This document shows, one piece after another, positions 6,101 through 9,100 of a stretch of DNA of 64,000 nt (positions are counted from its first letter, which is position 1; every line of letters begins with the position of its first letter). Made by a program: the position numbers. The stretch is from Escherichia coli (GTDB lineage: Bacteria > Pseudomonadota > Gammaproteobacteria > Enterobacterales > Enterobacteriaceae): NCBI RefSeq assembly GCF_003018255.1, contig NZ_CP027441.1; one strand, given 5' to 3'.

Positions 6101-9100
6101 ATATACCTACTCCAGCTTATGTTATGTCTGTTCTGCTGACCACAGCTTATATAAGGAAGTGCGTATGCCGTCACCTCAGGGGAGACAGTGTATGCAGGAT
6201 CTCCGCAGCATCCCGCCCGTCACCTGTGAAAGGCGCTGCCAGCGTGGCAGCCATATCCAGTGCAAACACTCTGGTATAAACCTCCATCGAACGTAGATCC
6301 CTGTGACTAAGCAGTGCCAGGATGACTTTCCGGGGCTGGCGGTGATAGAGCATGTGCATGATATAGCTGTGCCGGAAGGTGTGTGGTGTGACCGGTATCG
6401 AAAAGTGTCCCCCCTGCTTCGGCCCGTCTGACAGCCAACTTCAGCCAGTTGCGCATGGTTTCGTCGGTCACAGCTCATAATGGTTCACGACGACGGGGCC
6501 GGGTGGTGCTCATCCAGCTTTCCATCTGCCTGACATAGCCTATATCTGTCAGCGGAACCCAGCGCACTTCATCTTTGTGGCGGGCGTCCGCGTCGCGCAC
6601 GCACTTTTTCGGACAGGATCCGCACAAACGGTCTTACTCCATCCAGGCTTCGCCAATACGCATTCCGGTATTCCAGAGGGGGGCGAACAGCATATGGTGA
6701 CGCTGATCCGGCATATAGAAAAGAAGGGCACTCACTTCCGAGGCCAGCAAGTAGGCCGGTGTGGCCCCCCGTGGAAGTGGCCATTCTTCTCAGGGAGAGC
6801 GCTGTTGCAAAATCCCCCCCCCCGGCGCAATGGGTAACAGGGAGACGCGTTCTGGTGAATTCTGCAGGGGAATGACATTGTTCATGAGTTATTTTTCACG
6901 TAGCACACGCACTGTTGGATGGGGCTTCCCTGATCATGGTGGGAAGGCTCAGAACGCCATATTCAGTTTCCCGTAGTGGAACATCACGCCCAGCTTAAAG
7001 TGCTCCCGATTGCGGTATCCCCTGGCTTTTATCCTCAGTAGCCTGATCTTACTGTTAAGCGCCTCCGCATTTCCGTTTGAGACACGGTGCCGCATGGCAT
7101 TCAGGATCCCGTAAAGCCTTTTTCCTATCGTTTTTGCGGCGTTTTTCATCATAGGAACGTCACAGTTGGCCGCTAGAGCCAACCATCTCTCCCAGTCATT
7201 ACGTCTTTCCTCACTCCATGGCCTGTTCCAGATATCCTTTGCCAGCTCTTTCATGTCAGCGCCCAGCACTGGCTTGTCAGCTTCATCTGCGCACGCAGCC
7301 ATATCAGCTTTTCCTGCCTAGATTCGGTCATCCATTTATCGCTGTACTGCCACAGGAAGCGGGTCCCCTTTGCCTGACGCCGACTTTCAACAGGGAGGTG
7401 CGAATGTTCATTCTGACGGTTTTTATCAACCACTTCGCCAAGTTGCTTTGCTACATGGAAGCGGTCGAAGGCGATTTTCTCAACCGCACAGGGTAAGTGG
7501 ATACGCGCTGCTCTTATATAGCCTGCATTCATGTCCATTGAGAGCGTTTTGATAGCCAGCAACTGCCCGTCAGTAAGCGTGCGAAGATAGCCGGCGAGGC
7601 TCTCTGTGCCACGATCGTCCGTTAAGGGCAGCGCACGACCATCGCGATCGGAGCTCATCGTTATATAACGATGTCCTTTTTTAAAGGCGACCTCATCCAC
7701 ATTCATATGACGGGCGGATAATGGCTTTTTTATCCGGACAAAACCTCGCTTAACTGCCCGGGTCATAATGCCGTCAACCGCATTCCAACTGAGCTTAAGT
7801 TGTTTCCTGACAGCATCAACAGTACTGATTTTCAGCCATGAGAGAACGAACGATTCGAACAGCAGCGTATACCGGCTTCCGGGGCCAGCCCTGGGAACTG
7901 GCAACGTCTGGCGGCCATGCTCCGGCACATAATGCGGGGCACATCGGCTTCGACAATAGTGGTGAACTGGCAGGTATCAAGATGACGCCATTTACGATGA
8001 CGGTGACATCGTGAACAGAACAGGATTTACCACAGGTCGGACAGGCTAACCGGGCATTTTCAGCGATCCCAACTGTGACGGTAACAGAACCGGCGTTTTC
8101 ATCGAGAGAAAGAGATTTAACCTGCCTTGGAGCGGTCAGGTTGAGAATATGAACGTAGAGGGACTTTTCGTCCATGGCGGTGACCTCTGGCAATTAAAAC
8201 ATCATCATGCCTTCAGCCACCACAACAAGGGAAGACCCTTATGGATACAGCTATTCTGACCTGAACGTCCGGATCCTTCCACGACAATAAATCGCAGCGC
8301 GCGGATCCTTTTGTTTGATTATCACGCATTATTGCGTGTAAAGCCAAATACGTAAAGGCGTATTTGGCCGCAGGGATCCCGTCTTAAGCCAGTCGTGGCG
8401 CAGGCTGATGGCTGGTTTGCCGTTTTTGGGAGAATAGGGAGAATTGGGAGAATTGGGAGAATTGGGAGAATTGGGAGAATTGGGAGAATTGGGGTAATAC
8501 CAGGACGCTAATGATCTATCAATGGATGGATGTAAGTGACAATTGAAAACTGAAAAATGCGCTATGTAGATTCTGACAGATTTATGCACCTGAAATACGT
8601 TCAAAATCCACATAGCGTAACTCTGATTTCCCTTACCAGAAAAAAGAGGGGGAATAACCAGTATCTATCCCCCTAAACAATAGCAGAATAATAAATTATA
8701 AAAATAAGAACTCAGGATTTATATACATGATTACATGTAATATTACTGATAAATATTTTGAGATAAAACCTTTTTGCTGATTATTTTAAATATCTTGATT
8801 TCATCATCTGTAAGGTTGCTCCATATTTTTTTTAGATAGCGTCCATATATCCTTGTAATCTTCTGTAAAAACAAATCACCATCTGGAGTCAGGTAAATAT
8901 TCTTACTACGTCGATCTTCCTTACTTTCCATACGCCTAATAAAACCAAATTTTTCCAGAGAGTCACAAACTCTGGTGATATTTGTTCTGGAAACATCTAA
9001 TTTATCACTGAGTTCAGTTGGAGATAAGCAAAAATTATCAGCACTGGATAAGAGGGCCAGAACCATAAGTGTTGTATCATTTATGCCATCCACCTTCAGG

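Follow-up and report, generated by a model that had tools for sequence, protein, structure and literature searches.

The 9-bp array and its place on the plasmid

The window, a stretch of 64,000 nucleotides of Escherichia coli DNA (NCBI RefSeq assembly GCF_003018255.1, contig NZ_CP027441.1), comes from a pO113-type enterohaemorrhagic E. coli virulence plasmid. It carries a short tandem array with a 9-bp unit, which lies at the edge of the conserved RepFIB replication module, between the remnant of an ISL3-type insertion sequence (IS) and a gene for a MarR-like regulator. A first-pass annotation, made from the sequence, had given this location correctly. It had also judged that the region does not look coding, and suggested that the array might bind proteins or vary in copy number.

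Read in 9-base steps from position 8428, the array shows a characteristic structure: one variant unit, GGGAGAATA, is followed by six exact copies of GGGAGAATT and then by GGGGTAATA. The variant unit differs by a T->A change at its last base, so that six of the seven units are perfect and 62 of the 63 bases fit the repeat. The earlier description of a perfect repeat of seven copies therefore holds for the unit and the coordinates but not for its perfection. The 9-bp periodicity reaches somewhat further than the full units, through TT before the array and GGG after it, and Tandem Repeats Finder accordingly reports 8426-8493 (period 9, 7.6 copies, 96% matches, score 129) as the top-scoring short-period array of the 64 kb. 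With the chance of six exact consecutive 9-mers estimated at ~4^-45 per start position, their presence in a window of this size is not attributable to chance.

Copy-number alleles at the orthologous site

Units were counted at the DNA level between identical flanks, namely TTTTT on the left and GGGGTAAT(G/A)CCAGGA on the right (Table 2). Alleles with 0-4, 7 and 12 units occur at this same site, and the comparison of related plasmids that had been proposed as a check thus reveals whole-unit differences between identical flanks, in line with the suggestion that copy number may vary. The closest comparison is with NZ_CP027372, which is 99.92-99.98% identical to the window over 12.5 kb; the sole break in the alignment falls at the array, where the relative is 36 bp, or four units, shorter. 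Alleles of pO157 likewise differ by 9 bp.

Table 2. Number of 9-bp units between the shared flanks, by plasmid or strain
Plasmid or strain	Units	Remarks
NZ_AP026091 (pO157-like, complete plasmid)	0	allele TTTTTGGGGTAATG, one-piece 100% match
pO157 SS17	1	
Generic E. coli, Salmonella, Klebsiella, Mixta and Enterobacter plasmids	1	
pO157-WS4202 and several other pO157	2	
NZ_CP027370	2	
E. albertii pESA134_1	2	
pO113 (NC_007365) and seven or eight near-identical ~170-kb plasmids	3	
NZ_CP027372	3	
RM10740 IncFIA/FIB/FIC plasmid	3	perfect units
Window plasmid	7	
E. albertii type strain NBRC 107761	12	perfect units

A second count comes from the alleles of a small open reading frame (ORF) that overlies the array, as found in a collection of 15 billion proteins. 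On the pO157-type backbone, alleles of 0 and 2 units are represented by 411 and 412 contigs, respectively, and the 1-unit allele by at least 1,000. On the pO113-type backbone there are 30 contigs with 2 units, 498 with 3 and 269 with 4, the 4-unit allele being known from these ORF alleles. Those with 2 and 3 units also occur on the backbones of Salmonella Kentucky and Muenchen.

The usual state of the site is a single unit (TTTTTGGGAGAATTGGGGTAATGCCAGGA): the generic IncFIB plasmids that were fetched have one unit each, and a one-unit query aligns without interruption across the site in the sampled matches. One unit bracketed by TTGGG...TTGGG is presumably the ancestral state. Multi-unit alleles are found at the DNA level on pO113-type, 2014C-3307-type, pO157-type and RM10740-type backbones and on two E. 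albertii backbones, and they are accompanied by differing left-flank haplotypes and differing right flanks. Thus, expansion has arisen independently several times.

Within the pO113 lineage the variant GGGAGAATA is always the leftmost unit, and the only variation among the alleles is in how many perfect units follow it (1, 2 or 3, and 6 in the window). The window allele, the largest seen on this backbone, is best read from this pattern as the 3-unit pO113 allele with a recent gain of four units. Seven units on a pO113 backbone are seen in no other record: the exact 7-unit ORF is absent from the protein collection, and neither PLSDB nor the complete E. coli genomes hold a record with more than 3 units. 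It could hence be argued that the array is real but miscounted, an assembly or sequencing error having turned the 3- or 4-unit pO113 allele into one of seven units. We regard such an error as very unlikely. Modern reads all exceed 63 bp and span such an array with ease; the remaining 12.5 kb matches a finished relative at 99.9%; an independent assembly has a 12-unit allele; and the series of 2, 3 and 4 units on the pO113 backbone indicates that the locus does change.

A scan of species-representative genomes gave six matches, four of them homologous loci and two with unrelated flanks. In metagenomes, a scan for at least 4 units recovered arrays of 4-9 copies of GGGAGAATT in five unrelated environmental contigs (L017-L021). 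These were set aside as relatives of the window locus, to which their flanks show no similarity, and are considered coincidental.

The conserved module and neighbouring features

On its left the array abuts a 189-bp block (Table 1) shared by over 5,000 plasmids of the IncF type, from E. coli, Klebsiella, Salmonella, Citrobacter, Enterobacter and others, being ~93% identical among the IncF plasmids of E. coli and ~81% identical in Klebsiella. In intact plasmids this block is located directly upstream of a gene (int) for a 246-aa tyrosine recombinase, which adjoins the RepFIB repA gene and whose product matches Pfam Phage_integrase. In the window, int is a pseudogene, and the ISL3-type remnant splits it from its usual upstream block. 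The frameshifted int with its inserted, likewise frameshifted ISL3-type element is found in the identical state in NZ_CP027372. The upstream block also contains three occurrences of CG(N)3GGATCC (8266-8276, 8298-8308 and 8369-8379), and CGGATCCTT is present in it exactly twice.

Table 1. Features of the window around the 9-bp array
Feature	Position	Strand	Remarks
RepFIB initiator gene repA	~4908-5885		left of the int pseudogene
Tyrosine-recombinase (int) pseudogene of the RepFIB module	6174-6885	-	aligns with the intact 246-aa protein as two segments in different reading frames, at 66-80% identity
ISL3-type insertion remnant	6916-8238	-	frameshifted transposase ORFs 6949-8193; boundaries approximate, from alignment
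Conserved block directly upstream of int in RepFIB modules	8239-8427	.	ends in a T5 run abutting the array
Small ORF	8329-8613	-	94 aa in the window; reads the array as (PNS)n; very probably spurious
9-bp tandem array	8428-8490	.	variant unit GGGAGAATA 8428-8436, six exact GGGAGAATT 8437-8490
Last conserved bases of the module, GGGGTAATACCAGGA	8491-8505	.	similarity to generic IncFIB plasmid ends here in nearly all sampled matches
Spacer hypervariable between plasmid lineages	8506-8559	.	purine-rich in the Salmonella, Klebsiella and E. albertii versions
Inverted repeat	8560-8617	.	17-nt arms 8560-8576 and 8601-8617, 88% complementary, 24 nt apart
Terminator-like hairpin followed by T-run	8649-8673	-	downstream of the MarR-like gene; consensus scan only
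MarR/MprA-like gene	8743-9291	-	comes after ehxD on the same strand; Pfam MarR, E=5e-13
ehxD	9358-10797	-	annotated in relatives
ehxB	10801-12918	-	annotated in relatives

To the right of the array the module has a sharp edge at GGGGTAAT(G/A)CCAGGA (window 8491-8505; L003 2232-2246) in nearly all matches sampled from more than 4,900 matching plasmids. In a search among distant plasmids, similarity between lineages extends through ...CCGTTTTTGGGAGAATTGGGGTAATGCCAGGA and then stops, again in nearly all sampled matches. This edge could be a recombination point or plainly the end of constraint. Beyond it, past a hypervariable spacer, lies an inverted repeat, whose arms vary concordantly between lineages and whose arm motif (TTTCACGTAGC) reappears in intact plasmids ahead of int, 8-22 nt upstream of its start codon (L003 ~2010-2030). 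The arms, as candidate sites, might be bound by the tyrosine recombinase linked to RepFIB or by a regulator. Further downstream, the terminator-like hairpin that follows the MarR-like gene places the array outside the transcription unit of that gene.

The ORF over the array

In many plasmids the RefSeq Prokaryotic Genome Annotation Pipeline (PGAP) annotates a coding sequence (CDS) over the array. It may accordingly be asked if this is a real small protein, the array being a variable Pro-Asn-Ser repeat whose in-frame unit length was selected: in E. coli, Salmonella and Klebsiella the frame is open throughout the conserved 3' part, and the length of the unit is divisible by three. We consider this highly improbable on several grounds. 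The variable alignment columns fall on codon positions 1:2:3 in the ratio 14:9:13, with no third-position excess, and at ~81% DNA identity the E. coli and Klebsiella versions disagree at ~12 of 40 residues. The N-terminal half and the start codon are wholly different between backbones, with dozens of unrelated N-termini; the Salmonella version has no ATG start; and the Klebsiella and Salmonella records have no CDS annotated at the site. A family search gave no Pfam or NCBIfam match for the ORF, and no Pfam domain was found on any homologue. A unit that is a multiple of three is expected in one of three cases anyway. Of the features by which a coding tripeptide repeat would be recognized, namely a conserved start and length, substitutions at third positions and a family match, none is seen.

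Thus, lacking a codon-position bias, a conserved N-terminus and any family match, the annotated CDS is very probably spurious, a frame that happens to stay open over conserved non-coding DNA, and the first-pass impression of a non-coding region is supported despite the RefSeq annotation. Shorter alleles of this ORF carry the RefSeq names 'hypothetical protein', 'serine/threonine protein kinase' and 'transcriptional regulator', of which the latter two are implausible for a product of 50-85 aa with no family match and look like propagated misannotation. The comparison thereby exposes an ORF that bears a kinase or regulator name in thousands of records. Short plus-strand ORFs at the edge of the module (ATGCCAGGA...) were also considered and rejected, reasoning from the sequence, as neither their frame nor their length is conserved.

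Promoter, RNA and protein-binding signals

A promoter scan found no promoter-like hexamer pair overlapping 8426-8493. A promoter with TTGGGA as its -35 element was rejected, there being none in the scan of the array, and the candidate -10 hexamers GTAATA and TAATAC are poor. At the RNA level, a search of 8000-8900 against Rfam gave no match at E<=1, and consensus folding of the conserved block on the two strands yielded 0 and 3 compensatory pairs, the respective covariation terms being +2.72 and -0.05 kcal/mol. A small RNA ending at a terminator-like hairpin at 8400-8420 was dropped because this folding gave no covariation support on either strand. The array itself has no hairpin potential and is unstructured. 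Thus, neither an Rfam match nor covarying helices, which would mark a structured non-coding RNA, are found here.

The exact unit GGGAGAATT has no copy outside the array on either strand of the whole window, and one-mismatch matches show no excess, with 17 in total (7 in the array and 10 outside) against ~16 expected. This answers the proposed search for the motif elsewhere on the replicon in the negative, and an iteron or dispersed binding site was rejected as the motif is absent elsewhere in the window. An operator for the MarR-like regulator was likewise rejected: the unit is not palindromic, and the site also expands in plasmids whose fetched flank has neither a MarR-like nor an ehx gene annotated. 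The suggestion that the array may bind proteins consequently finds no support, with one unit present in most plasmids, none in some and the motif absent elsewhere on the replicon.

A broader possibility is that the array is a cis-acting element, in which the units or their spacing modulate the binding of Int or another protein, the transcription of int, or recombination between the block and the inverted repeat, or in which the purine strand forms a G-quadruplex, such that copy number tunes plasmid maintenance. The array does lie within a highly conserved, regulatory-looking region beside a recombinase gene and between repeated arm motifs; the bases surrounding the single unit are unusually conserved; and alleles of 3 or more units match the canonical G3N1-7 quadruplex pattern. 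Even so, we hold a cis-acting role to be unlikely. Most plasmids have one unit and many have zero while retaining the module, the 9-bp period is out of helical phase, and the array has no promoter hexamers and a motif that is not repeated elsewhere. Moreover, int is intact beside alleles of 2, 3 and 12 units and degraded in the window, indicating that, among the alleles seen at the DNA level, the number of units is unrelated to whether the gene next to them is intact, and the recombinase of the window is a pseudogene cut off by an IS, which leaves nothing for the array to regulate. Still less probable is a more specific version in which the spacing, or a quadruplex in alleles of 3 or more units, alters the function of the recombinase site or the progression of the fork near RepFIB. 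If that were true, copy number would affect dimer resolution or plasmid stability, and the recurrent expansions would be selected rather than neutral.

A probable slipped-strand repeat in plasmid backbone DNA

The reading that we strongly favour is that the array is a variable-number tandem repeat (VNTR) that arose by slipped-strand mispairing in non-coding plasmid backbone DNA beside the RepFIB module and has no dedicated function. The site displays the hallmarks of a VNTR: short head-to-tail units, copy-number differences with conserved flanks, whole-unit steps in near-identical genomes and recurrence in separate lineages. We observe an allelic series that recurs in separate backbones and lacks coding, RNA, promoter and dispersed-motif signals. 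Slippage as the mutational mechanism, together with neutrality, is what we infer to lie behind this series.

The ancestral site TTTTTGGGAGAATTGGGG would have held a single 9-bp unit between 5-bp direct repeats of TTGGG. During replication, slipped-strand mispairing at the microhomology TTGGG(AGAA)TTGGG could then delete the unit, giving the 0-unit allele, or duplicate it, giving two. From two units on, further slippage would gain or lose whole units stepwise, and in the pO113 lineage the leftmost unit would have acquired the T->A change seen in GGGAGAATA. The sole predicted effect is the addition of 9 bp per unit to a weakly constrained spacer between the block upstream of int and the downstream inverted repeat. 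As the unit is a multiple of three, expansion would extend the spurious ORF without breaking its frame.

Certain points weigh against this account. The ~30 bp that hold the single unit differ by one base between E. coli and Klebsiella, whereas the block overall is ~81% identical, and it is possible that the end of the module is under constraint, for example as part of a recombinase or regulator site. The neutrality is suggested by comparison between plasmids. Finally, the 7-unit allele is known from the window only, and its exact count rests on one assembly.

Comparison with known repeat systems

The O157-36 and O157-37 loci used in multilocus VNTR analysis (MLVA) lie on pO157. The window array resembles the MLVA repeats of O157:H7 (Vhec, TR, O157-n) in its short head-to-tail units, its whole-unit changes and its allele differences between near-identical strains, and some of these loci are, like it, plasmid-borne. 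It differs from them in its 9-bp unit and low copy numbers (mostly 0-4), and in being located on the RepFIB backbone of thousands of IncF plasmids rather than in one serotype. Mutations of E. coli O157 VNTRs involve complete repeat units, via slipped-strand mispairing, and the units of the O157 MLVA panel are 6, 7 or 18 bp long (PMC3777172). The window array, with its 9-bp unit, was on this account rejected as a locus of that panel.

Like the RepFIB iterons, the array consists of direct repeats in a non-coding part of that replication module. Those iterons, however, are ~20 bp long, occur as multiple copies in all members of the family and flank the rep gene, whereas the unit of the array is 9 bp long, occurs once in most plasmids and is missing from some, and the array lies on the far side of int and an IS from repA, ~2.5 kb away. 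Thus, it shows neither multicopy conservation across the replicon family nor a unit of ~17-22 bp next to rep or the origin. Separate arrays of period 11 and 21 occur upstream of the RepFIB initiator gene, at 4555-4605 and 4653-4704. They are probably the iterons of the replicon, as candidates, and bear no sequence relationship to the 9-bp unit.

Simple-sequence contingency loci, as known from Neisseria, Haemophilus and other bacteria, are phase-variable repeats located in a gene or a promoter. The array, like them, is a tandem repeat prone to slippage and of differing length in close relatives, but its unit, as a multiple of three, cannot switch the frame and the ORF over it has no coding signal. 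Nor does a -35/-10 pair, as phase variation of a promoter would involve, flank the array or lie within it.

The same replicon carries a second kind of tandem repeat, with a 111-bp unit in 3.8 copies that are 99% identical (43194-43615), inside an ORF at 42387-43880 on the plus strand. It encodes 37-residue repeats within a 497-aa autotransporter adhesin, which we take to be the Saa adhesin of pO113. The number of such Saa-like repeats varies between strains. Apart from being tandem repeats on one replicon the two differ, the 111-bp unit being a 37-residue module inside a clear autotransporter ORF and the 9-bp array lying in no credible gene.

Across literature full texts, the unit and its rotations match only unrelated primers and oligonucleotides, and no description of the locus was found in the literature on RepFIB with recombinase or multimer resolution, or on pO113 with VNTR or MLVA.

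Significance

The locus is a real, ordinary low-copy plasmid VNTR; the array shows no sign of function, and the finding has no bearing on any long-standing biological question. It may serve as a minor strain marker: with 0, 1 and 2 units each common on the pO157-type backbone and 2, 3 and 4 units on the pO113-type backbone, it offers a cheap extra marker, of small practical value, for closely related ehx and IncFIB plasmids. The locus also shows exactly where the conserved RepFIB-int module ends on its right-hand side, an edge that may aid the study of how this module recombines into different plasmids.

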